DNA of 64,000 bases from a virus (taxonomy: Duplodnaviria > Caudoviricetes), in IMG/VR virus record IMGVR_UViG_2908764845_000006, positions 32,001-96,000 of that record, one strand, 5' to 3'. The translations under genes were made by a program, and so were the position numbers. How positions within the stretch are numbered: the stretch's first letter is position 1; each line of letters starts with the position of its first letter. The notes beneath the pieces were generated by a model. The model was not told the origin of the DNA and searched no databases. It worked only from the letters and a program-made list of their open reading frames with translations. Of the stretch, positions 3,188 to 32,008 are shown piece by piece.

Positions 3188-4789
3188 TTAGCCGTTGGCG
3201 ATGTTCGAGATCATCGCGAAGGCGGGCGGGAAGTAGCACTGCAGCACTTCGTCGGCGTAGACGCCCGACTCGTACTTGCGGGTCCGCAGCGGCCACTCGA
3301 TCTGGTAGTAGTCCTGACGGCAGCGGACCTGCAGGACGTTGGCGATACCCGAGACCGGGTACGGCAGCGACTTCGACGTCATCACGATCGTGCCCGCGGG
3401 CATGTTCGGATGGATGCGGATGTCGAGGGTCTTGGCGCCGCCCATGCTGAAACGGTTCAGATAGGTGCGGACCATGATGCCGCCGCCGAGGCTGTCGCGC
3501 TCGGAGTTGAACACGAACCGCTGGGCCGCGTTGGACGAGCCCTGCAGGATCTTCTTGGAGATGTTCAACGCCTCCTGCGAGTTCACCCAGATGGTGTCGG
3601 GCGACAGGCGGAAGTTGTCCCAGCGATCCTTCAGCGCGGCGTCGATCTCGACGATGCCGCCGGAGCCGTCCGAGGTCAGCGGCGTACCGACGCCGGCAGC
3701 GCCGGTGGCGAGACGGCCGACATAGGCATTCGACCCGGCCTTGAGCAGCTGGGTCATGATGCCGTCGAACACGAGGCTGTTGGTCGACTGGTCGCTCGAC
3801 GGCAGCGAGGCTGCGGTCTGCGTGCCGGTCGCGGCCGCCACGATGGCAACCGAGTTGATCGAGGTGATCGCACCGAGCACCTCGGAGCCAGCCGCGCCCC
3901 AGAACCAAGCGTAGCCGCAGGCGCCGTTGACCGCCGCAACGGTCGCCGTCAGCGAGCCGGTGGTGCCGCTCGCGACGGTGCCGGTGGCAGCCACCGACTT
4001 CTGCGCGGAGCCGCCGCCGAACGTGTCGGACGAGCCGTCAGCGTTGGCGCGGGTGATCGAGGCCTGGATACCGCCGGCGATCGAGCCGTTGACCATGGCG
4101 TCGAACGCGAGCGCGACGCAGATCACCGAGTAGGTCGCGGCAGCCAGAACGCCGCCGGTGATCGAGGCCGCGACCGTCGGGGTCGGGGTGATGCCGAGCT
4201 GCAGCGAGGTGTTGCCGCCGAGCAGCAGCGCCTCTTCGCCGATCATGGTGGCCTCGAGGCCGACCTTGGCCGCGATCGCCCGGATGTCGTCGAAGCCGCG
4301 GCCAGCGTACTCGGCCTCGAAGTCGACGTTGGTTTCCAGACCGATGCCGCGGTAAGCCGCCGCGTAGTCCTGCGTGGAGACCGCCTGCACGCCGCCGCGG
4401 TTACCGGCCGAGACGCCGATCCGCATGTTGGCGGTGTTCACGCTGGTCACGGCGCGCCAAGCGGCCTGAATGCCGCCCTTGCCGGTCACGCGCGGAATTT
4501 CGTTCCGCAGCGGAGTGAGAACCGGGTACACGAACTTCGCGCCCAGCTCGAGATCGTAGTAGGTCAGGCCCGTGGTGGGCGAGCCGGCCTGCTGGAACGT
4601 CGCCGACTTGGCGAACATCTCCGGGACGAAGTTGCGCGCCTCGTGCGACTTCGACATCGACGCGAGGAAGGACTGCACTTCGGCGGCGATCGCAGCGCGA
4701 TCGAGGTTGCCGTTGACGGTGTAGATCGGCGCCCACGACTTCTGCAGCTCGTGCGGCAGGAAGTCGGTATACTTGACGAGAGCGTTCAT
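3188..4789 (-). CDS. Major capsid protein
   Basis: 533 aa, directly downstream of protease/scaffold; GLTYYDLE...PVLTPLRNEIPRV and C-terminal YYQIEWP...GVYADEVL; strongly biased codon use. Confidence 0.8.
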   Translation of the reverse strand: MNALVKYTDFLPHELQKSWAPIYTVNGNLDRAAIAAEVQSFLASMSKSHEARNFVPEMFAKSATFQQAGSPTTGLTYYDLELGAKFVYPVLTPLRNEIPRVTGKGGIQAAWRAVTSVNTANMRIGVSAGNRGGVQAVSTQDYAAAYRGIGLETNVDFEAEYAGRGFDDIRAIAAKVGLEATMIGEEALLLGGNTSLQLGITPTPTVAASITGGVLAAATYSVICVALAFDAMVNGSIAGGIQASITRANADGSSDTFGGGSAQKSVAATGTVASGTTGSLTATVAAVNGACGYAWFWGAAGSEVLGAITSINSVAIVAAATGTQTAASLPSSDQSTNSLVFDGIMTQLLKAGSNAYVGRLATGAAGVGTPLTSDGSGGIVEIDAALKDRWDNFRLSPDTIWVNSQEALNISKKILQGSSNAAQRFVFNSERDSLGGGIMVRTYLNRFSMGGAKTLDIRIHPNMPAGTIVMTSKSLPYPVSGIANVLQVRCRQDYYQIEWPLRTRKYESGVYADEVLQCYFPPAFAMISNIANG

Positions 4790-4978: not shown

Positions 4979-7942
4979 TCAGACCTGGCCGCGCGTCGGC
5001 ATCTGCCGACGCATGGACGCCTCGGTGGCTCGGGTGTTGAGCTCCTCGGACGTGATCTTCGCCAGATCACTGGTCACCATGTCGATGGCCTTCTCCGCGA
5101 CGCGGTAGGGACCGTTCGGCACGGCGGCCGGATAGAGCGAGACCTCGGCGACACGCTTGGTGAGGTCGCCGTTCTGGGTGGTCAGGGTCGCGATCTCCTC
5201 GCGGAGCGGACCCGTAGCCTTGGCGACCTCGTCGCTGATCTTCAGCGCGATGCCGGCCTCGATGTCCTTGAACAGCTGGGCCTGCGCGGCCGAAGCGGCA
5301 GCGACCTGCGCCTTGAGCAGATCGTTCGCCTCGATCGCCTTGCCGAGATCGTCGCCGGCGGCCTTCTCCGCAGCACCGCAGCAGCCCTTGTCGAGCTTGA
5401 CCATGGTGTCGTGGATTTCCTTGATCGCGGCGCGATCCTTGGCGCTGTGCCGCGCGCCGCGCTTGAGGAGATCGGCCAGCGGAGCTGCGCGCGTCAGCGC
5501 CTCGCTCTGCTCTTCGGCCTTGATGTGGGTCAGCACGGTGTCGAGCACGGCCGCGACGATGTCGCCGAGGTCGACCAGCGCGGCGCCGAAGCGGTCGCGC
5601 AGCTCCTTCGGCACCTCGATGCCCCACTCGCCCTCGGTCATGTTCTCGCACGCCTGAACGCACGCGAGCATGTTGGTGAGGTCGCCCATCATGTAGAGGC
5701 CGGCGCCCTTGGCGAGCTCGTCGCCCTCGATCGCCTCGCCCTTGAACACGAGGCCCTCGGGCAGCTTGTCGACGAGCGACAGCGCGCGGGCGGCCTTGAC
5801 CAGCTCGCGGGTCTCCACGTGGGAGGCGTTCAATGCGTCGAACAGCGTGATCGCCTTCTCGACGCCCTCGGCGGTGGTGAGGTCAGCCTTCTCGACGGTT
5901 GCGGTCTCGCCTTCGGGCTTCGCATCGCCATCAGCGCCCTTGGCGACCTCGGCGGGCTTCTCGCCGGTCTTGAGCGCATCGAGCACCGGAGCTGCCGCCT
6001 TGGCGACCGCGTCCTTGGCTTCGAGCTCGGCGAGCGCCTTCAGCAGGTCGCCCTTCTTGGCGAAGGTCTGGTTCGGCAGGCGCGGCGACGCCCAGACCTG
6101 GGCGACGTCGTCGGGAGTGGTCTTGGTCAAATCGACGCCCTCGGTTGCGGTGTTTTCGATCGTGCCACCGGCTTCGACGGTGGCGGTGGCGCCCTTGGCG
6201 ACCTCGGCAGCGGCCGCCTCAGCGGCGACCGGCTCAGCAGCGGCCTGCTCGACGGGAGCGGCCTTCTTGGCGGCGGCCTCGTCCTCGAGCGCCTTGCGGG
6301 CGTCGGCGATGTGCACCAGCCAGTCACCACCCTTCTCGGTCGCGATCTCGGTGGCGCGCTTGGCGACCATGTCGTTGGTGATGACGATCTCCTCGGTGGT
6401 CTCCGGCTTGGAGGCCTCGCCGCCAGCGAACTTGCGCATCTCCTCGGTGCCGTCCGCCTTGATCATGGAGAACGTGGCGGAGGGCCCGCACGGCAGGTCG
6501 ACCAGCGAAATCTCGGAGGGCGCGGCGGTATAGCGCTTTGCGTCGCCATCCTGCCAGCGCTTGAGGTAGCGGCCGCCGATGGAGAAGCCGGTGTAGACGC
6601 CCTCCTCGACCTTCTTCCACTCGTTGTCGTCGACGACCTTGGCGGCGATGTCGATCGCCTTGCGCGCATCGTCGAAGCCGATGTCGGTCAGCTTGCCGGC
6701 CGCGATCGCCGAGTGCATCGAACGCACGTTGCCGAGGCTCTTGCCGTCGGTCACCTTCGCGATGTCGCCCGACCACTTCTCGAAGTGCGGCTTCGAGGTC
6801 GCGTAGTCGAAGATCTCGTTGGCGCGATCGACTTCCTCGACCACTGCGGTGCCGTAAACGATGCGCTTGGCGGCATCGACCTTCGCGATTTGCACGAAGA
6901 GCGAAAGATTATCCATGTCCAGTTCTCCTGCGTCGCGTTTTTCGACGACGGTTGACATCCAGTTTTCTTTGATCTCGGCCCACTGCTCGGGTCCGAACTC
7001 AAGCACGCCGTCGAACGGCGCCATCTCGTCGATGACGATGTCCGCTCCCTGATAGGTGAGCGTGACGTGCGATTTGAAGTCAGGCCACCGCCAGACGGCG
7101 CCTGCGTCGTGGATCTCGCGATGACGCGAGGCGAGCTCGTCGGAGTGGAAGCGAAGCACGAGGGCTTCACCTTCCTTGCCGAGGCGCTCGAGGTGACGCT
7201 CACCGCCTTCGACCCGGAAGATCGGCACGGTGGAGCGCGGCACGCCGGACCATTCGACCGGCTCTTTCGAGTAGGCGATGGTGACGTGGAAATCGTCGAT
7301 GGGCAGCGTGACCGGGAAGCCGTTGGCTGCGGCCCAGCTCTTGAGTGCCTCGCCGTTGCGAAGGCTGCGCTTGATGTAGAGCGTGCGCTTGTCGCCCTTG
7401 GCGAAGCGCATCGGGCCGCCCTCGACGACGGAAATGACGAGCGGCAGCGAAGCGCGGACGCCGGGATGCAGCGGCTCGGGCGGCGCGCGCAGATATTCCC
7501 AGCGCGCCTCGGTGTGCTCGTCGTTCAGCTTGACGGCGAGCTTCTCCTCGACGCGCTGAACGAAGGTGGTGAAGTCGACCCGGCCGGTTGCGATCTGGCA
7601 GACCTGGCCGCGGATGCCTGCAGGGTCGAGCGTGATGCCGGCCTCTTCGAGCGTCTCGCGGATTGCTGCCTCTTCGGCCGTCTCGCCCGCGTCGATGCCC
7701 CCGCCCGGGAAATTCCACTCGCCGCCGTGGTCCCCACCCGGGGCCCGCTTCATGAACAGCGCGCGTCCATCCGGGGTCACGATGGCGATGCCGGCCGCCT
7801 GATGGCGGCCCGCGTCCGGATCGACGGCCGCCTTGGTGGCGTCCTTCTTCTTTTTCTTCTTCTGGCCCTCGAGGTCGTAGCCCTGAAGGCCGGACGTTGC
7901 CGACGCCGGCGCGGCGAAGGTCGATTTCTCCGCCGCGGTCAT
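4979..7942 (-). CDS. Fusion: NUDIX hydrolase + 2H phosphoesterase (Acb1-like) + prohead protease (XkdF/HK97-like) + scaffold
   Basis: Nudix box GGIDAGETAEEAAIRETLEEAGI; two HxT motifs (FHVTIAYS, SHVTLTY); protease segment RIVYG...RSMH...YTGFSIGG...EISLVD; Ala/Glu/Lys-rich tail; start at ATG 7942 with GGAG RBS. Confidence 0.8.
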   Translation of the reverse strand: MTAAEKSTFAAPASATSGLQGYDLEGQKKKKKKDATKAAVDPDAGRHQAAGIAIVTPDGRALFMKRAPGGDHGGEWNFPGGGIDAGETAEEAAIRETLEEAGITLDPAGIRGQVCQIATGRVDFTTFVQRVEEKLAVKLNDEHTEARWEYLRAPPEPLHPGVRASLPLVISVVEGGPMRFAKGDKRTLYIKRSLRNGEALKSWAAANGFPVTLPIDDFHVTIAYSKEPVEWSGVPRSTVPIFRVEGGERHLERLGKEGEALVLRFHSDELASRHREIHDAGAVWRWPDFKSHVTLTYQGADIVIDEMAPFDGVLEFGPEQWAEIKENWMSTVVEKRDAGELDMDNLSLFVQIAKVDAAKRIVYGTAVVEEVDRANEIFDYATSKPHFEKWSGDIAKVTDGKSLGNVRSMHSAIAAGKLTDIGFDDARKAIDIAAKVVDDNEWKKVEEGVYTGFSIGGRYLKRWQDGDAKRYTAAPSEISLVDLPCGPSATFSMIKADGTEEMRKFAGGEASKPETTEEIVITNDMVAKRATEIATEKGGDWLVHIADARKALEDEAAAKKAAPVEQAAAEPVAAEAAAAEVAKGATATVEAGGTIENTATEGVDLTKTTPDDVAQVWASPRLPNQTFAKKGDLLKALAELEAKDAVAKAAAPVLDALKTGEKPAEVAKGADGDAKPEGETATVEKADLTTAEGVEKAITLFDALNASHVETRELVKAARALSLVDKLPEGLVFKGEAIEGDELAKGAGLYMMGDLTNMLACVQACENMTEGEWGIEVPKELRDRFGAALVDLGDIVAAVLDTVLTHIKAEEQSEALTRAAPLADLLKRGARHSAKDRAAIKEIHDTMVKLDKGCCGAAEKAAGDDLGKAIEANDLLKAQVAAASAAQAQLFKDIEAGIALKISDEVAKATGPLREEIATLTTQNGDLTKRVAEVSLYPAAVPNGPYRVAEKAIDMVTSDLAKITSEELNTRATEASMRRQMPTRGQV

Positions 7943-7964: not shown

Positions 7965-9173
7965 TCAGGTGAGCGTGTTGGCCCACGCCGTGATGGTCGG
8001 CGCGATGTTTGCGTTGCCAAGCGCGTTCGGGTGGATGCCGTCGGCGGTGAGAACGCCGCCCGAGACCTTCCACTTGCCGGGGTTGGCCGGATCTTCGACC
8101 ACCGCGGCGACGTCGATGACGCCGTCGATGGTCACGCCGACCTGCGTCAGCAGCCATGCGTTGAACAGGCCGCGGATGCCGGTGCTTTCGTAGTTGGCAA
8201 CGACGGTCTGGCCGCCCGTCGTGGTGAAGCCGTCCGACGAGGTGCAGCGCGGCAGCAGCGTGCACTGGTAGACCTTGAGGCCCCGCGCCTTCGCCGACTT
8301 CCAGTTCGCGAGGGCCAACGTCTGCATGCTGGCGAGCGAGACGCCGCCGGCAGGATCGTTGTTGCCCATGTCGGTGACGTAGTGGGTGGCGTACTCCATC
8401 AGGCTGTCGCGCCGCCAGCCGTGCCCGATTGCACCCTCGCCCTGCAGGCTGTCGCCCGCGCGCGCCAAGTTCATATACGGGATGGCGCCGCCCGAGGCGC
8501 CGACCAACCCGCGCTCGAGGAAGCCGTTTGCGCCGACGTTGTTGTTCACGTCAGCCACGCCGACCGCGATGCTGTCACCGCGGATCACGACGGCGGGCGT
8601 CGGGGTCAGCGGATAGCCGAGCACTGCGAGCGGACCATAGCCCTTTGAGACCAGCACGCCGCCGTTCGCCACCATAGCGCCGGTGAAGCCGAGAACCTGG
8701 CTGCTGCCGGAGGTGTTCTCGACGAAGGTGTCGGCGGTGGTCAGCGTCAGCACGCCGTACTGCACGAACTGACCGGCGGAGGCGACCGTGACGCCGGTAC
8801 GGATGGCAAAATCGGTGCTCGGCGCCAGATCGGCGCCGATCTTGTCGGAGATGAAGTAGTGGGCGCCGGCGGCGAGCAGCCGGTTGACCTGCGCGCCGAA
8901 GAACGCCCGGCGGGTGAACACGCCGGTCAGCGACTCGAGCGCCGCCTCCACCGTGATGTCGTTCGGCGCGTCGGCGTCCGAGCTGGTCGCGTTGGCGAGG
9001 AAGTTGCCGTACAGGAGGCGGATGTCGCGCACATAGACCGGCGCCGAGCGCATCTTGATGCGGCTCTCGAACCGGGTCGCGGTGCCGCCGCCCTGCGTGT
9101 AGTCGCCCATGACGCGGCCGCGCGTGGCGACGACCTGCAGCTTGCGCGGGGAGATGCGTTGGAAGTCGGTCAT
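7965..9173 (-). CDS. SGNH/GDSL hydrolase-domain protein
   Basis: GDSIAVG, NLARAG, GNND and DGIHPN blocks all present. Confidence 0.75.
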   Translation of the reverse strand: MTDFQRISPRKLQVVATRGRVMGDYTQGGGTATRFESRIKMRSAPVYVRDIRLLYGNFLANATSSDADAPNDITVEAALESLTGVFTRRAFFGAQVNRLLAAGAHYFISDKIGADLAPSTDFAIRTGVTVASAGQFVQYGVLTLTTADTFVENTSGSSQVLGFTGAMVANGGVLVSKGYGPLAVLGYPLTPTPAVVIRGDSIAVGVADVNNNVGANGFLERGLVGASGGAIPYMNLARAGDSLQGEGAIGHGWRRDSLMEYATHYVTDMGNNDPAGGVSLASMQTLALANWKSAKARGLKVYQCTLLPRCTSSDGFTTTGGQTVVANYESTGIRGLFNAWLLTQVGVTIDGVIDVAAVVEDPANPGKWKVSGGVLTADGIHPNALGNANIAPTITAWANTLT

Positions 9174-10083: not shown

Positions 10084-10279
10084 TGAACTTGTCCCCCAAG
10101 GGTTCGAGCTCGCCGACCGAGACATACTTGTCCGGTCGCGCGAGCTGAGCGGCCGCCGCGTTGCGGTGAGCCATCTCGTTGATCCGGCGAAGCTCGGCGA
10201 GCGTCAGCATCTGCTGGCCGCTCTCCTTCGCCTCGTTCCGGCGAGCGCCGCGGTATGATCCGGCTGGTCGGGCCATCAC
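10076..10279 (-). CDS. Hypothetical protein
   Basis: Overlaps the portal stop and the next start. Confidence 0.45.
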   Translation of the reverse strand: MMARPAGSYRGARRNEAKESGQQMLTLAELRRINEMAHRNAAAAQLARPDKYVSVGELEPLGDKFNG

Positions 10280-11958
10280 TTGTCCTTCTTGGGCGGCGCC
10301 TTGGCGCCGACCTTGGTTGAGGGGGGCGATGTGGAGGGGGTCTTGGTGGAGCCCGGCTCGGGCGCCGTGGGCTGCGGGACGGCTTGCGCCATCGCCTTCG
10401 CCTCGGTGACCTTCTGGTCGAGCTGACCGTTGTCGATGTTGACGTAGCCGGTTGCGGTCTTGACCATCAGCTGGCTTGCCGCAGGGTTCGGATCAGGCTC
10501 CTCGCCGATCTTCTCCCGGACCTGATTGATGGTCAGGATGCCGTCCTCGGCGTAGCCGCGCAGGATGGTCGACTGCTTCTCCGGGTCGATCTCCTGCTCT
10601 TCCGCCCACGCGAACTCGAGGTCGTCGTCGGAGAACTCGCGCATCAGCACGTCGTTGAGGGTCTCGGTGACCCACTGCTTCATGGGCTCGATGCCCTCCT
10701 CCTCGGCCTGCTTCTCGTGCTGCTCGGCGATCGAGCGGTTCGAGAGCGAGACGAAGGCGGCCGGCGGATAGGAGAACGCGAAGCAGACGATGCGGACCAG
10801 CCACTCGTCGAACTCGTTCTTGAGCGGCGGCTCCTTGAGCGGCGTGTAGGCGTTGCCGGAGCCGGTCGGGATGAACTTCATCCGGCGACGGTTGGCGAGG
10901 TTGCCCGAGAACAGATCGTCCCAATACTGCTGGAAGCGTGCAGTCTGGTCCGGCGTCCACTCGGCCGGCAGCGAATACACCGCGTCCGGCTGGTTGCCTT
11001 CGCGGAAGTATTCGAGCTGCGCCAGCGAGCGGCGCAGCGCGATCGAGACGGTCATCACGACCTGCTCGACCGGCGAATAGCCATAGACCCGGTTAGGACG
11101 CAGATTGAGCGGCCGATAGATCAGGTCCGCCGTGGTGTAGTTCACTGCCGGGAGACCTTTCAGCACCTGCTGATAGGCCGGAGGCAGCATCGCGAACTTC
11201 GGCGGCTTCATGCCGATCGGCGTCTGATGCGCGATCATGGAGCCGGGCACCAGCCGGAAGCCGAAGGTCCGGTGGTTCTCCAGCGTGATGGTGTCGCCGT
11301 TCCACGTGAAGTCCTGCCCGGTGAACGGGATGGGCTCCGGGGTGCGGCCCCAATCGTCGATCACCCGCTTGATGGTGCCGCCGTCGACGTAGCGCAGGCC
11401 GATCAGCCCGCCGCCACGGTTGCGCTCGCAGAAGATCGACGGGGCGTCGATCACGAGCAGATCCTCGAGGATCGCGCGCAGCCAGGATCGGAAGGTCATC
11501 TCCCGGTCGGGCCGCTTGAAGAAGCGCGTGATCTCCTTGATGCGGTTCTGCTGAGCCGCAGGCAGCTCGGAGATCGGCGGCCGCTTCTTCTTGCTGCTGT
11601 CCTCGTGCTTGACGCGGATGGTCCACGGCAGGCGGCACATCTGATCCTTGCGCCGCTCGATGACGAGCCGCATCGGGTCGTAGCTGTCGGCGAGGTTGCG
11701 CAGCGCCGGGAACGAGATTTCCTCGTAGGTGCGCGGCGTGGTGGCGAGGTTGTAGCCCGGGATGAAATCCCAGACGCGGCCTGCGACCTCGGGCGGGGCA
11801 ATCGGCTGGATCGGGTTGAGAGGTCCGAACCAGTCGGCGCCCTGCGCGGTGCCGTAGCCCGCGCCCGGCGTGACCGGGCGCCCTTGCGACGACACGTTGA
11901 CGTCGTAGGGAGAGAGCGACCGCATCGAGCGGCCTTCTCCGCGAGGGGTGGACACCAT
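10276..11958 (-). CDS. Portal protein
   Basis: 560 aa between TerL and protease; YGYSPVEQ, YFREGNQP and LTINQVREKIG motifs of HK97-type portals. Confidence 0.85.
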   Translation of the reverse strand: MVSTPRGEGRSMRSLSPYDVNVSSQGRPVTPGAGYGTAQGADWFGPLNPIQPIAPPEVAGRVWDFIPGYNLATTPRTYEEISFPALRNLADSYDPMRLVIERRKDQMCRLPWTIRVKHEDSSKKKRPPISELPAAQQNRIKEITRFFKRPDREMTFRSWLRAILEDLLVIDAPSIFCERNRGGGLIGLRYVDGGTIKRVIDDWGRTPEPIPFTGQDFTWNGDTITLENHRTFGFRLVPGSMIAHQTPIGMKPPKFAMLPPAYQQVLKGLPAVNYTTADLIYRPLNLRPNRVYGYSPVEQVVMTVSIALRRSLAQLEYFREGNQPDAVYSLPAEWTPDQTARFQQYWDDLFSGNLANRRRMKFIPTGSGNAYTPLKEPPLKNEFDEWLVRIVCFAFSYPPAAFVSLSNRSIAEQHEKQAEEEGIEPMKQWVTETLNDVLMREFSDDDLEFAWAEEQEIDPEKQSTILRGYAEDGILTINQVREKIGEEPDPNPAASQLMVKTATGYVNIDNGQLDQKVTEAKAMAQAVPQPTAPEPGSTKTPSTSPPSTKVGAKAPPKKDK

Positions 11959-11974: not shown

Positions 11975-13684
11975 TTACGTTGTGGGCCCCGCTTGAGGCG
12001 TTGGCGCGGGCAGCGGGACGCGCTCCCAGCCCCGTTGCATGAAGGCTGAGGCGTCGTCCTTGCTGACGGCGATGATGCGGTTGGCCGGCGGGTATGCTGC
12101 CGTGCCGTCCATCAGGTAGACGGTCGATACGTCGTCCGGCACGCGGATCAGCACCTTGTCGCGCGGAGGCGTGGCCGGTGTGATCTCGAAGCCGAACTGG
12201 GGACCTTCCGGAGGCGGGGCGCTTGCGGCCCCGCCCTGCTGCTGCGCGCCCTCGGCGAGCCGCTTGTAATACTCGATCCAGCTGTTGGCGCCGGAAGCGA
12301 GAGCCAGGTCGTTCACCGCCCAGATCCATGCGTCGGCACGGTCAGGCGACTTCGGTCCGCCGTAACCGAGCGTGGTGAAGGCGGTGAGCTGGTCCTCCAG
12401 CTCGTTGAAGCGTCCGACGTGGCGCACGCCGTTGCGGGTATACAGCGTGGAGATCGGCTCGGCGCGGACGTGCTTGCCCTTGCTTGCATGCACCACGCGC
12501 ACCGGGACGTTACCGTCCAGCGAGCGGATGACGTAGGCGACCATGTCGCCGCCGTAGTTGGTCTCGGCGATGATGTGGTCGGCGCCGTAGGCGTGGTAGG
12601 CGGCGATTGCCGCCTTGCCCCAGTTCTCCGGACCGCCGACGATCGACAGGTCGGCGCGCAGATAGACACGGTTGTCCTTGCCGAGCGAGGCGACAATGAT
12701 GCCGATCTCGTCGTTGAGCGGCTTCTGCTCGACGTCGGTCTTGTCGCCGGGCTCGGATGCGCCGGACGGGTCGATCGAGACCACGGTCTGCACATATTCC
12801 GGCTCGTCGCCGACGACGACGCGGCAGCTCTCGATCATCTCGGTGGTCCAGAGCGCGCCGACGTTCTCGTCGATGTAGGCGCCTTCCCAGAACCGCTTGC
12901 GATAGTTGCCGGTCGAGTTTTCGAGTTCCTTGATGTAGCCCGCGTCAAGGTTCGCGATGTTGTCAGCGGGATTGATGAACATCCGCTGGTAGTTCTCGGG
13001 GTCGTTGATCGCGACCTTGGTCTCTGGGTCCTTGAGCTCGCCGAACAGGACGTTGGTCCAGTGCGACTTGCCGACCGGGTTGATGTCGTAGAACATCCGC
13101 TGCCGGCAGCCGGCGACGACCTGGGCGAGACGCGAGCGGACCAGCTTGGCGGTGTACCAGCTGATCTGCGAGCACTCGTTGAGGAAGATCGTGGCGTATT
13201 CGGCGCCGAGGATCTTGTCGGCGCGCGAGGCGTCGTCGAGACCGCCGATCCAGATTTCCGATCCGTTCGGAAACCGCACCACGTTGTGGGGGTGGCGCGA
13301 ATGCCTGTATGTCGTCCCCGGGAAGAAGAGCTTCATCACCTTCGGCAGGGTGTCGAGACCCACCGAGGCGTCGGCATGGACCGCGCGGTTGCGCAGGATC
13401 ACATGGCGGGAGCCCGGGAAGCGCAACGCGCGCAGCACGATGGTGCGGACGAGCGTCGTGGTCTTGCCGGAGCGGGCGCCGCCGACCAGACAGGTGTGGC
13501 GCTGATCGCCACCGAGCAGGATGGTGGCCTTCTCCTGCGCCGGCGTTGCGCCCTTCTCGCCCCATGACGAGAGCGCGGGGCCGCCATTGTGCCCGACCTT
13601 GGTCGGGCCCTCGGCGCCGACGATGACGAACTGAGGGCCCCTGCTGGGGGCTTTTTTCTGCCGCGCGGCCTTAGAGCTTGGCAT
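11975..13684 (-). CDS. terL: Terminase large subunit
   Basis: Walker A GGARSGKT; Walker B-like IFLNECSQ; nuclease motifs VSIDPS, AETNYGG and SPDRADA. Confidence 0.9.
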   Translation of the reverse strand: MPSSKAARQKKAPSRGPQFVIVGAEGPTKVGHNGGPALSSWGEKGATPAQEKATILLGGDQRHTCLVGGARSGKTTTLVRTIVLRALRFPGSRHVILRNRAVHADASVGLDTLPKVMKLFFPGTTYRHSRHPHNVVRFPNGSEIWIGGLDDASRADKILGAEYATIFLNECSQISWYTAKLVRSRLAQVVAGCRQRMFYDINPVGKSHWTNVLFGELKDPETKVAINDPENYQRMFINPADNIANLDAGYIKELENSTGNYRKRFWEGAYIDENVGALWTTEMIESCRVVVGDEPEYVQTVVSIDPSGASEPGDKTDVEQKPLNDEIGIIVASLGKDNRVYLRADLSIVGGPENWGKAAIAAYHAYGADHIIAETNYGGDMVAYVIRSLDGNVPVRVVHASKGKHVRAEPISTLYTRNGVRHVGRFNELEDQLTAFTTLGYGGPKSPDRADAWIWAVNDLALASGANSWIEYYKRLAEGAQQQGGAASAPPPEGPQFGFEITPATPPRDKVLIRVPDDVSTVYLMDGTAAYPPANRIIAVSKDDASAFMQRGWERVPLPAPTPQAGPTT

Positions 13685-19135: not shown

Positions 19136-19314
19136 CGGGGGTCCTTGCGGTGCGCCGCGAGTAGCGCGTCGATGAATGGTCTCGACTTCGCCGCCATCTC
19201 GGCGGAGAGCTTCTTCTTCCAGTCGGGGCCGTACTTGGCCTTCTGGATCGCGACGAACTCGCGGAGGATCGCCTTCACCTCGTCGGAGGGCTCCGGACGG
19301 GGAGCCTCACTCAT
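19132..19314 (-). CDS. Hypothetical protein
   Basis: Operon packing. Confidence 0.45.
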   Translation of the reverse strand: MSEAPRPEPSDEVKAILREFVAIQKAKYGPDWKKKLSAEMAAKSRPFIDALLAAHRKDPR

Positions 19315-19678
19315 CGGCGTGGCCGTGGCAGACGATGTGCCCACACCGGGGACACGTCGAGCGCAGCTCCGGCTGACCTTGGTCGATCACCGGAAACTCG
19401 ATGCCGTGAAGCTCCGCGGCGCGCAGCTCGAACTTGATGAGCGCGACCCGCAACGCGGAGAGGATCAGGCTGTTGTGGCGGCTCGGGACCTGGCCGTTGA
19501 GATACTTCACCCGGTCGATCAGGACGCGCAGCACCTCCTGACTGTTGGTACCGCCGTGAGGCCGGCCCTCGTTGCCGGGATAGCCCTCGCCGACCCGCTT
19601 CATGAACTGGATCAGGGACTGGGGCGCGCCGTCGTAGCCGTCGACGGCGTAGAGGTGGCCCTTCTCGACGACTTCCAT
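19307..19678 (-). CDS. Possible Acb2/Tad1-like hairpin (nucleotide-signal sponge) protein
   Basis: IQF...GTNSQEVLRVLIDRVKYLN...SRHNSLILSALRVAL...R resembles the Tad1/Acb2 helical hairpin; C-terminal CPRCGH. Confidence 0.4.
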   Translation of the reverse strand: MEVVEKGHLYAVDGYDGAPQSLIQFMKRVGEGYPGNEGRPHGGTNSQEVLRVLIDRVKYLNGQVPSRHNSLILSALRVALIKFELRAAELHGIEFPVIDQGQPELRSTCPRCGHIVCHGHADE

Positions 19679-31556: not shown

Positions 31557-32008
31557 CGGGCGGGGTCCAACGATGGGGGCTGGGCGGAACTGGACGTGGA
31601 CGTCCAATGGTGTTTCCCCGCCTCCCCCTACCCGGCCAGGATGGGCGGTGTCGGGACGGAAGCGGGGGCGGAAAGCGACGGAGGCCAGCGTCAGCCGTGC
31701 CTAGGAGGGCTGGCGCTGACCTCACGTGACCGGCTATCGGAGGGCCGGATCGGGGGAAACTGGTTGGGGACTACGAGGGACGTCGTCTCGGGTGACGCGG
31801 GACCATCGGGACCGCGCGGTCTCCGGTCTGGGTGACCGGGCGCAGCTTCCCGTTAGGAAGTACCCTCATGGATACCTTCCCCCACAATCAATCTGACGAT
31901 GTTCCTGAGTGAACGGCACACCCTCGCTTGATGCTCGGGGTGCCTCATGACGCAGTGGTGGCCGCGCCCGGGCGTGTGTAGGCCACGGTTTTGACAGCAA
32001 AAACAAGA

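Follow-up and report, generated by a model that had tools for sequence, protein, structure and literature searches.

Here, we describe a gene that joins two predicted nucleotide hydrolases to a prohead protease and a scaffold-like tail, in a provirus located within a bacterial contig of ~9.8 Mb. The window (the whole stretch of DNA that was analyzed, 64,000 nucleotides [nt]; positions 32,001 to 96,000 of IMG/VR record IMGVR_UViG_2908764845_000006) is part of a provirus record of 111,990 bases, and the nearest named relatives are from Bradyrhizobium. The gene product, hereafter the polyprotein, comprises a short leader, a poly-Lys run, a NUDIX domain, an Acb1-family 2H domain, a prohead protease, and a helical scaffold tail, in that order (Table 1). 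On balance, we consider it probable that the protease-scaffold loads the two hydrolases into the prohead and cuts them free.

The polyprotein frame (7942..4979, minus strand) translates into 987 residues with one terminal stop. A program-made list of open reading frames (ORFs) runs this frame on to a TTG at 8020, which was rejected as a start; 7942 was taken instead because the TTG lies within the upstream esterase gene (TGA at 7965-7967) and a GGAG stands 5 nt before the ATG. Homologues were collected with the polyprotein as query (240 proteins, 238 with the protease domain; the sample is biased to cargo-bearing forms), and 42 of the 238 have >60 extra N-terminal residues. Both enzymes sit on this protease in 12 proteins, and the same pair occurs on DUF2213 proteins; therefore, the fusion is not an assembly artefact. 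A stop hidden between the domains by a sequencing error, a concern of the preliminary description, is likewise ruled out, since all 12 two-enzyme homologues hold the enzymes and the protease in one frame. That description, made from the letters of the window, had also proposed a single uninterrupted ORF, a perfect Nudix box, a two-HxT Acb1-like 2H domain, a protease domain from position 6916, and a long scaffold-like tail, all of which were borne out by the translation (987 codons) and by the matches and model given below.

The NUDIX domain was matched by Pfam PF00293 over residues 46 to 160 (E value, 1.3e-18; 67.8 bits against a cut-off of 21.1). Its Nudix box, GGIDAGETAEEAAIRETLEEAGI (G81-I103), is intact and fits GX5EX7REUXEEXGU. 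In an AlphaFold2 (AF2) model of the full-length polyprotein (94 sequences; mean predicted local distance difference test [pLDDT] score, 71), the NUDIX and protease domains are confident, with block means of 92 to 98 for residues 51 to 170. The closest solved NUDIX relative by sequence was RenU (6uuf; E value, 1e-11). Among the two-enzyme homologues, REx2EE is kept in 12/12 and the full box in 11/12; in P0003, Ser replaces the Gly of the box.

The 2H domain was matched by the Acb1-specific model PF23474 almost end to end (residues 186 to 330; model positions 1 to 143 of 144; E value, 2.7e-33; 115.1 bits against a cut-off of 27). Both HxT motifs are present (H219-V-T221 and H292-V-T294) and align to both HxT motifs of Acb1 chain 7t26 and of the C-terminus of the Pam3 portal (8hds). 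The sequence match to 7t26 had an E value of 7e-8, with about one-third of residues identical by eye over a 101-residue alignment. In Acb1 of Erwinia phage FBB1, the catalytic tetrad is H44, T46, H113, and T115, and the ligand is contacted by stacking aromatics, a Glu at adenine N6 (E141), and a Trp in the C-terminal lid (W147) (PMC9117128). E315 and W321 of the polyprotein, candidate counterparts, are invariant and six residues apart, which is also the spacing of E141 and W147; the alignment to 7t26 ends before these, at chain residue 112. Both catalytic His residues are kept in 11 of the 12 two-enzyme homologues. The remaining one (P0005; locus L001, a Rhodocyclaceae metagenome-assembled genome) has Asn at the second (KPNVTLTY), so its Acb1 copy is probably inactive. 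The general LigT and 2'-5' ligase models were not passed by the 2H domain of the polyprotein, and the PHROGs label of the family is "RNA ligase" (phrog_755). The domain would most likely hydrolyze the cyclic di- and trinucleotides of the cyclic oligonucleotide-based antiphage signaling system (CBASS).

PHROG head maturation protease families matched the polyprotein from M343 (nt 6916) onwards (E values, 2.5e-9 and 2e-6). An AF2 model of residues 336 to 520 (63 sequences; mean pLDDT, 85.5) had T4 gp21 (5jbl_B) as its top structural match (VIA Z score, 13.0; root mean square deviation, 2.3 Å; 130 of 164 residues), followed by herpesvirus proteases (Z ~7). Foldseek also ranked gp21 first (E value, 1e-3; probability, 1.00). 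H410 and S454, the candidate catalytic residues, are invariant across the 63 sequences. The tail forms helices in the AF2 model (residues 523 to 561, 630 to 659, 741 to 850, 866 to 935, and 965 to 980). Residues ~683 to 735 align with a motif of relatives (SYPI..DLE.A..AYGRSKNK..KRHI) that is degenerate in the polyprotein. The tails of P0014, P0019, P0144, and P0065-type proteins contain ChaB (PF06150) or DUF6582 (PF20223) modules.

The leader, MTAAEK/STFAAPASATSGLQGYDLEG (the slash marks a predicted cut), resembles the predicted maturation site and N-arm start of the capsid protein encoded downstream, EMFAK61/SATFQQAGSPTTGLTYYDLELG (nt ~4547-4612, minus strand). The two read AEK/STF...GLQGYDLE in the leader and FAK/SATF...GLTYYDLE in the capsid, and their shared motif occurs exactly twice in the six-frame translation of the window. 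We infer that capsid maturation occurs at K/S: among 108 distinct capsid ORFs of related loci, 41 contain S(x)TF...YxLE in its strict form, a Lys stands directly before it in 39 of the 41, and the capsid propeptide upstream of it is variable. The capsid of HK97 is cut at K103/S104. Eleven leader positions are invariant in 12/12 two-enzyme homologues. In other relatives the K/STF cassette is internal, between cargo and protease (P0016, P0021-23, P0027, P0028, P0034, P0035, P0040, P0041, and P0144), or it stands ahead of a cargo-less protease (L057, L060, L061, L068, L077, and L103). Cutting by the protease is pointed to because the leader copies the capsid K/STF site and this site lies between cargo and protease in relatives; the simplest reading is that the cassette would be a copy of a substrate site, through which the protease could release any upstream part. 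Conservation extends ~20 residues beyond the cut, more than a cleavage site should need, which suggests an added docking role. The leader as a purely N-terminal capsid-targeting signal was rejected as the sole reading, given the internal cassettes. The leader and the capsid stretch differ in their codons, which gives no support to a recent gene conversion between leader and capsid gene.

Further candidate cuts also come after Lys. All seven Lys-ending motifs quoted in the preliminary description are present; those at the domain borders are conserved, and those of the tail (VAK-G at 583 and 668, VEK-A at 685 and 696), located in variable segments, are not. VVEK335, shortly after the end of the Acb1 model, is the same in 12/12 two-enzyme homologues, whichever domain comes next. 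A hydrophobic-x-K-small motif follows the NUDIX domain in 12/12 (alignment, by eye). IK495, LxK745, K827, and K951 are conserved in at least 90% of 94 sequences. Segments with pLDDT values of <50 include residues 1 to 40, 176 to 187, 323 to 347, 507 to 517, 563 to 610, and 665 to 682, and the first three of these hold K6, K37, K182, and K335; K495 is not in such a linker and lies at the end of a modeled strand. After nine distinct leaders, the next 20 residues contain 8 to 10 Lys/Arg in six cases and 4 to 6 in three. In the polyprotein, the poly-Lys run is encoded by AAGAAGAAAAAGAAGAAG, an A-rich tract in a window whose 2-kb blocks have G+C contents of 59 to 69%; it could slip in translation or replication. 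Cutting of the polyprotein is thus supported indirectly, by conserved Lys sites in linkers modeled as disordered and by the capsid-site copy at cargo borders.

A second start is predicted at M343. Among the sampled homologues, 186 of 238 begin within 15 residues of this position. Of 13 N-extended loci, 11 have a GGAG 4 to 11 nt upstream of this Met; among the remaining in-frame Met codons of these ORFs, 3 of 175 have one. The residues encoded across the GGAG vary (G-E, Q-E, K-E, and L-E). With GGAG and ATG exactly at the start of the cargo-less homologues, nested long and short products of 105.6 and 68.2 kDa are therefore predicted.

The protease-scaffold is widespread (1,650 cluster representatives at E values of ≤1e-30), and its cargo varies. 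Domains were scanned in 44 proteins, namely the 42 N-extended homologues and two DUF2213 proteins without this protease domain; 25 had Acb1, 21 had NUDIX, and 3 had ChaB, which is in the tail in the three carriers scanned individually. The 12 two-enzyme proteins comprise 5 with NUDIX then Acb1, as here, and 7 with Acb1 then NUDIX; the swap shows that each domain behaves as a bead of its own. The cargo matches its relatives with as high an identity as the chassis does. The pair is also fused, in both orders, to the DUF2213 proteins P0165 and P0120, which match phrog_2229, "head maturation protease" (E values, 1e-114 and 1e-93); P0165 showed no profile similarity to the protease described here (hhalign probability, 0.07%). 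The nearest Acb1-like domains in cultured phages and solved structures are portal C-termini, for instance in Pam3, in phiPSA1-like Pseudomonas phages, and in phages of Rhizobium and Synechococcus.

Some relatives carry other N-terminal material. A module of ~165 to 200 residues (M..LRDDE.F.P.D.LPPG) replaces or precedes the enzymes in P0041, P0027, P0034, P0035, P0040, P0135, and P0016; Pfam and the PDB sequences (E values of ≤1) gave no match for it, and its best protein-atlas score was 0.86 (threshold, 0.9). One or two Cys-rich inserts of ~30 residues (CxxC...C...GHC) follow the leader in P0004, P0005, P0006, P0010, P0013, and P0016 (~8000-8300 in L001), and the polyprotein is without them. 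The "prohead protease" of Edwardsiella phage vB_EpM_ZHS (L133, 2116-2715) was rejected as a fusion; it is a free 199-residue Acb1-like gene between terminase and portal, and its name was probably carried over from fused relatives.

The polyprotein gene lies between the portal and major capsid genes, in the same-strand order large terminase, portal, two small ORFs, GDSL-type esterase, polyprotein, capsid, Gp80-like protein, and tail fiber. The phrog_13692 protein was taken as the major capsid protein; across 133 loci, the capsid gene is downstream of the protease-scaffold in 115. No homologue of the esterase was found in 132 related loci. An ORF at 19307..19678 (minus strand), a candidate Tad1/Acb2-like sponge, had no Pfam match at E values of ≤0.01. 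No SMODS match was found in the 111,990-base provirus record, which is uninformative for the rest of the host genome.

Table 1. Features of the polyprotein gene and its neighbors (positions in the window; slashes mark predicted cuts)
Feature	Position (nt)	Strand	Basis or remark
Whole polyprotein gene	4979..7942	-	ATG 7942, GGAG 5 nt upstream, stop codon 4979-4981; 105.6 kDa
Leader, MTAAEK/STFAAPASATSGLQGYDLEG, copy of capsid maturation site and N-arm start	7862..7942	-	Invariant positions, motif search
Polybasic run KKKKKKDATK, candidate cut ATK37/A	7832..7861	-	pLDDT <50
NUDIX hydrolase domain, residues 46-175	7418..7807	-	Pfam PF00293, box G81-I103
Disordered linker with FAK182/G	7382..7417	-	pLDDT <50 for residues 176-187
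Acb1-family 2H phosphodiesterase, residues 186-335, ends in VVEK335	6938..7387	-	PF23474, two HxT
AGGAG-N8-ATG at M343, predicted second start	6914..6929	-	645-residue, 68.2-kDa cargo-less protease-scaffold
Prohead protease domain, residues 343-505	6428..6916	-	gp21-like fold, invariant H410 and S454
Scaffold-like tail, residues 506-987	4982..6427	-	Helices split by disordered Ala/Glu/Lys linkers
Large terminase gene	11975..13684	-	Pfam and PHROG matches
Portal gene	10276..11958	-	Pfam Phage_portal, E 2.7e-21; phrog_2662, E 1.6e-76
GDSL/SGNH-type esterase, 402 residues	7965..9173	-	phrog_8480, E 1.7e-53; Pfam Lipase_GDSL_2 below cut-off
Major capsid protein gene, 533 residues	3188..4789	-	phrog_13692, E 2.8e-138

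We propose that two nucleotide hydrolases were added, as an N-terminal cargo, to a prohead protease-scaffold protein. Its helical C-terminal tail would co-assemble with the capsid protein and so bring protease and cargo inside the prohead. Loading is well supported by inference, as the cargo is covalent to the protease-scaffold and the gene lies ahead of the capsid gene. There, the gp21-like serine protease would cut after Lys in disordered linkers, at K61/S62 of the capsid protein and at the copied K/STF, ATK/A, FAK/G, and VVEK/R of the polyprotein, which would free a NUDIX enzyme of ~15 kDa and an Acb1 enzyme of ~17 kDa. The internal GGAG-ATG at M343 probably also gives a cargo-less protease-scaffold, setting the ratio of cargo to chassis. 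The NUDIX enzyme would hydrolyze some nucleoside diphosphate-X or nucleoside triphosphate-type molecule; a link to Thoeris is a guess, and in the literature searched we found no report in which degradation of an immune signal was shown for a phage NUDIX. The freed enzymes are larger than peptides that could exit the shell; they probably stay in the virion and would travel with the DNA into the next host. Copies left out of assembly would be active as well, late in the producing cell; action in the next host and late action in the producing cell are not mutually exclusive.

Several points weigh against this proposal. The polyprotein contains 74 Lys residues, so the four nonconserved tail motifs (583, 668, 685, and 696) could be chance, and conservation is what counts. 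In the full-length model, the Acb1 region is a low-confidence fold (pLDDT, 35 to 70). The Pfam model Peptidase_S78_2 (XkdF) reached 18.2 bits against a gathering threshold of 24, over residues 432 to 458 only. The 13 N-extended loci are mutually related rather than 13 independent events, and a conserved Glu could itself keep the GGAG; even so, the enrichment of GGAG at M343 is large. All 15 NCBIfam equivalog matches of the NUDIX domain were far below cut-off (best, 41.4 bits against 245), so no substrate class can be named for it. In INPHARED (August 2025), 0 of 131 matching phage records cover ≥80% of the polyprotein, which leaves no cultured model at hand. Finally, Hobbs and Kranzusch (2026) report that T4 gp21 activity cleaves the loop of a nucleotidyltransferase of the cGAS/DncV-like kind (CD-NTase) and triggers CBASS late (PMC12991175). 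On this report, delivery at entry is not obviously needed, and the enzymes may matter late in the producing cell; the rationale of the preliminary description for injection "before any phage gene expression" is thereby weakened.

The same report also makes the polyprotein an anti-CBASS enzyme fused to the likely trigger of CBASS, and one can read the fusion as an antidote: synthesis of the signal-destroying enzyme would match that of the trigger in timing and in amount. The enzymes would then act mainly late in the producing cell, with packaging as a by-product, a possibility that we regard as real but rather unlikely. A protease-scaffold is an abundant late protein, which we count in favor of the antidote. 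So do the gp21 fold of the protease (VIA Z score, 13.0), the occurrence of the NUDIX-Acb1 pair on two protease families without detectable sequence relationship, and a CD-NTase activation loop reported for ~24% of CBASS operons (PMC12991175). However, Acb1-like domains are also found on portal C-termini, and 2H domains on MuF (PMC5512222), and neither protein is a reported trigger; protease, portal, and MuF have their location within the head in common. Equal timing could be had from a separate late gene, with no fusion; the enzyme, once assembled, would be shut off from a cytoplasmic signal; and the copy of the capsid cleavage site suggests that processing takes place within the prohead. Fusions to portal and MuF speak for selection on a position within the head, and the 2026 trigger result, together with capture by two unrelated protease families, indicates that linkage to the protease may matter. 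Tentatively, and we think this unlikely, CBASS-activating prohead proteases of two families could have repeatedly captured Acb1, in both orders, as a self-masking trigger with self-released cargo whose dose is tuned by the nested start; each trigger molecule would then come with a signal-destroying enzyme of its own.

It is very unlikely, in our view, that the pair serves RNA or nucleotide housekeeping, with the 2H enzyme acting on 2',3'-cyclic phosphate RNA ends and the NUDIX enzyme decapping RNA or cleaning the nucleotide pool early. The phrog_755 name, the MutT- and RppH-type NCBIfam models to which the NUDIX domain comes closest (none reaching its cut-off), and the RNA-repair roles of 2H enzymes (PMC9503650) would suit it, but the end-to-end Acb1-specific Pfam match (115 bits against 27) contrasts with the failure of the general LigT and 2'-5' ligase models, the Pfam and PHROG context shows neither an RNA ligase nor a kinase, whether fused or next to the gene, and the 2H versions of polyvalent proteins are described as not associated with RNA ligases (PMC5512222). 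Least credible of all is a neutral or decaying fusion remnant without present function. The Asn of P0005, the missing Nudix-box Gly of P0003, and the cargo-less state of most chassis proteins (186/238) point that way; against it stand catalytic motifs intact here and, for each domain, in 11/12 relatives, the recurrence of such fusions across head proteins and with the domains in either order, and cargo as similar to its relatives as the chassis is.

Lambda C/Nu3, Mu I/Z, and P2 gpO are protease-scaffold genes with nested products. The polyprotein gene resembles them in joining protease and scaffold in one frame with an in-frame internal start; unlike theirs, its internal start precedes the protease, so that it drops the cargo and gives no separate scaffold. 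T4 gp21 shares the gp21/assemblin fold with the protease described here and cuts after Glu (PMC12991175), whereas cutting here seems to be after Lys, like that in HK97. T4 Alt and the T4 internal proteins are packaged in the prohead, where the prohead protease trims them, and reach the host along with the DNA to counter its defenses (PMC9503650). P1 Dar proteins are likewise capsid-targeted, processed, and injected. All of these are products of separate genes and use a short capsid-targeting peptide, unlike the present cargo, which is carried by the protease-scaffold itself. Acb1 itself (T4 gene 57B; FBB1, 7t26/7t27) is likewise a 2H phosphodiesterase with an HxT/HxT tetrad (PMC9117128), but a free protein of ~150 residues whose C-terminal lid closes over the ligand, whereas the domain here is internal to a 987-residue head protein. 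Acb1 cleaves 3'3'-cGAMP and cAAA and shields the phage from CBASS. In the portal of cyanophage Pam3 (8hds; 621 residues), the Acb1-like match (469-615; E value, 4e-18) runs nearly to the C-terminus, and its host is a portal and not a protease; no NUDIX was seen in that chain, and the accessible text of the Pam3 paper does not mention the Acb1-like domain. In phiPSA1 and the Rhizobium RHph and RHEph phages, the Acb1-like domain is also the C-terminal part of the portal (matches H3-H18 and H31-H36).

The general idea of head-packaged NUDIX and 2H enzymes is not new and has been in print since 2017 and 2022. Iyer et al. (2017) described 2H domains fused to MuF or portal and proposed that they degrade host-defense nucleotides (PMC5512222). 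Iyer et al. (2022) described phage Nudix domains fused to MuF, portal, and a capsid-processing serine peptidase as probably packaged and injected, and suggested packaging and injection for 2H domains fused to MuF or portal (PMC9503650). Those fusions and the polyprotein are alike in placing an enzyme, predicted to be packaged or injected against nucleotide signaling, on a protein of the terminase-portal head module; relative to the text of both papers, the polyprotein and its homologues differ in the joint presence of both enzymes on the protease, the exchange of their order, the capsid-site copy, and the internal start. In the literature searched (text only, without figures or supplements), we found no description of Acb1 and NUDIX together on a prohead protease, nor of the copied site or the internal start; Figure 5a and the supplements of PMC9503650 may show this architecture. 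The words "fused," "portal," and "capsid" are absent from the main text of Hobbs et al. 2022 (PMC9117128), and in the accessible text of Hobbs and Kranzusch (2026), "fusion" appears only in a reference title (PMC12991175). What appears to be new here, on sequence grounds, is the leader copy of the capsid K/STF site, the predicted internal start at the start of the cargo-less homologues, and an anti-CBASS enzyme on its likely trigger.

Work on phage counter-defense enzymes usually deals with free proteins made early. A self-releasing cargo borne by the protease would illustrate how enzymes come to be preloaded into phage capsids and would offer a natural design for capsid enzyme packaging. The recurrent NUDIX partner points to a second nucleotide signal or substrate, and Acb1 on a gp21-like protease is relevant to the way in which CBASS detects infection. 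Should the trigger be protease activity, the fusions would represent an answer of the phage laid down in gene architecture; if CBASS-activating proteases did repeatedly capture Acb1, they would be a direct evolutionary footprint of CBASS protease sensing, in soil bacteria far from Escherichia coli models.

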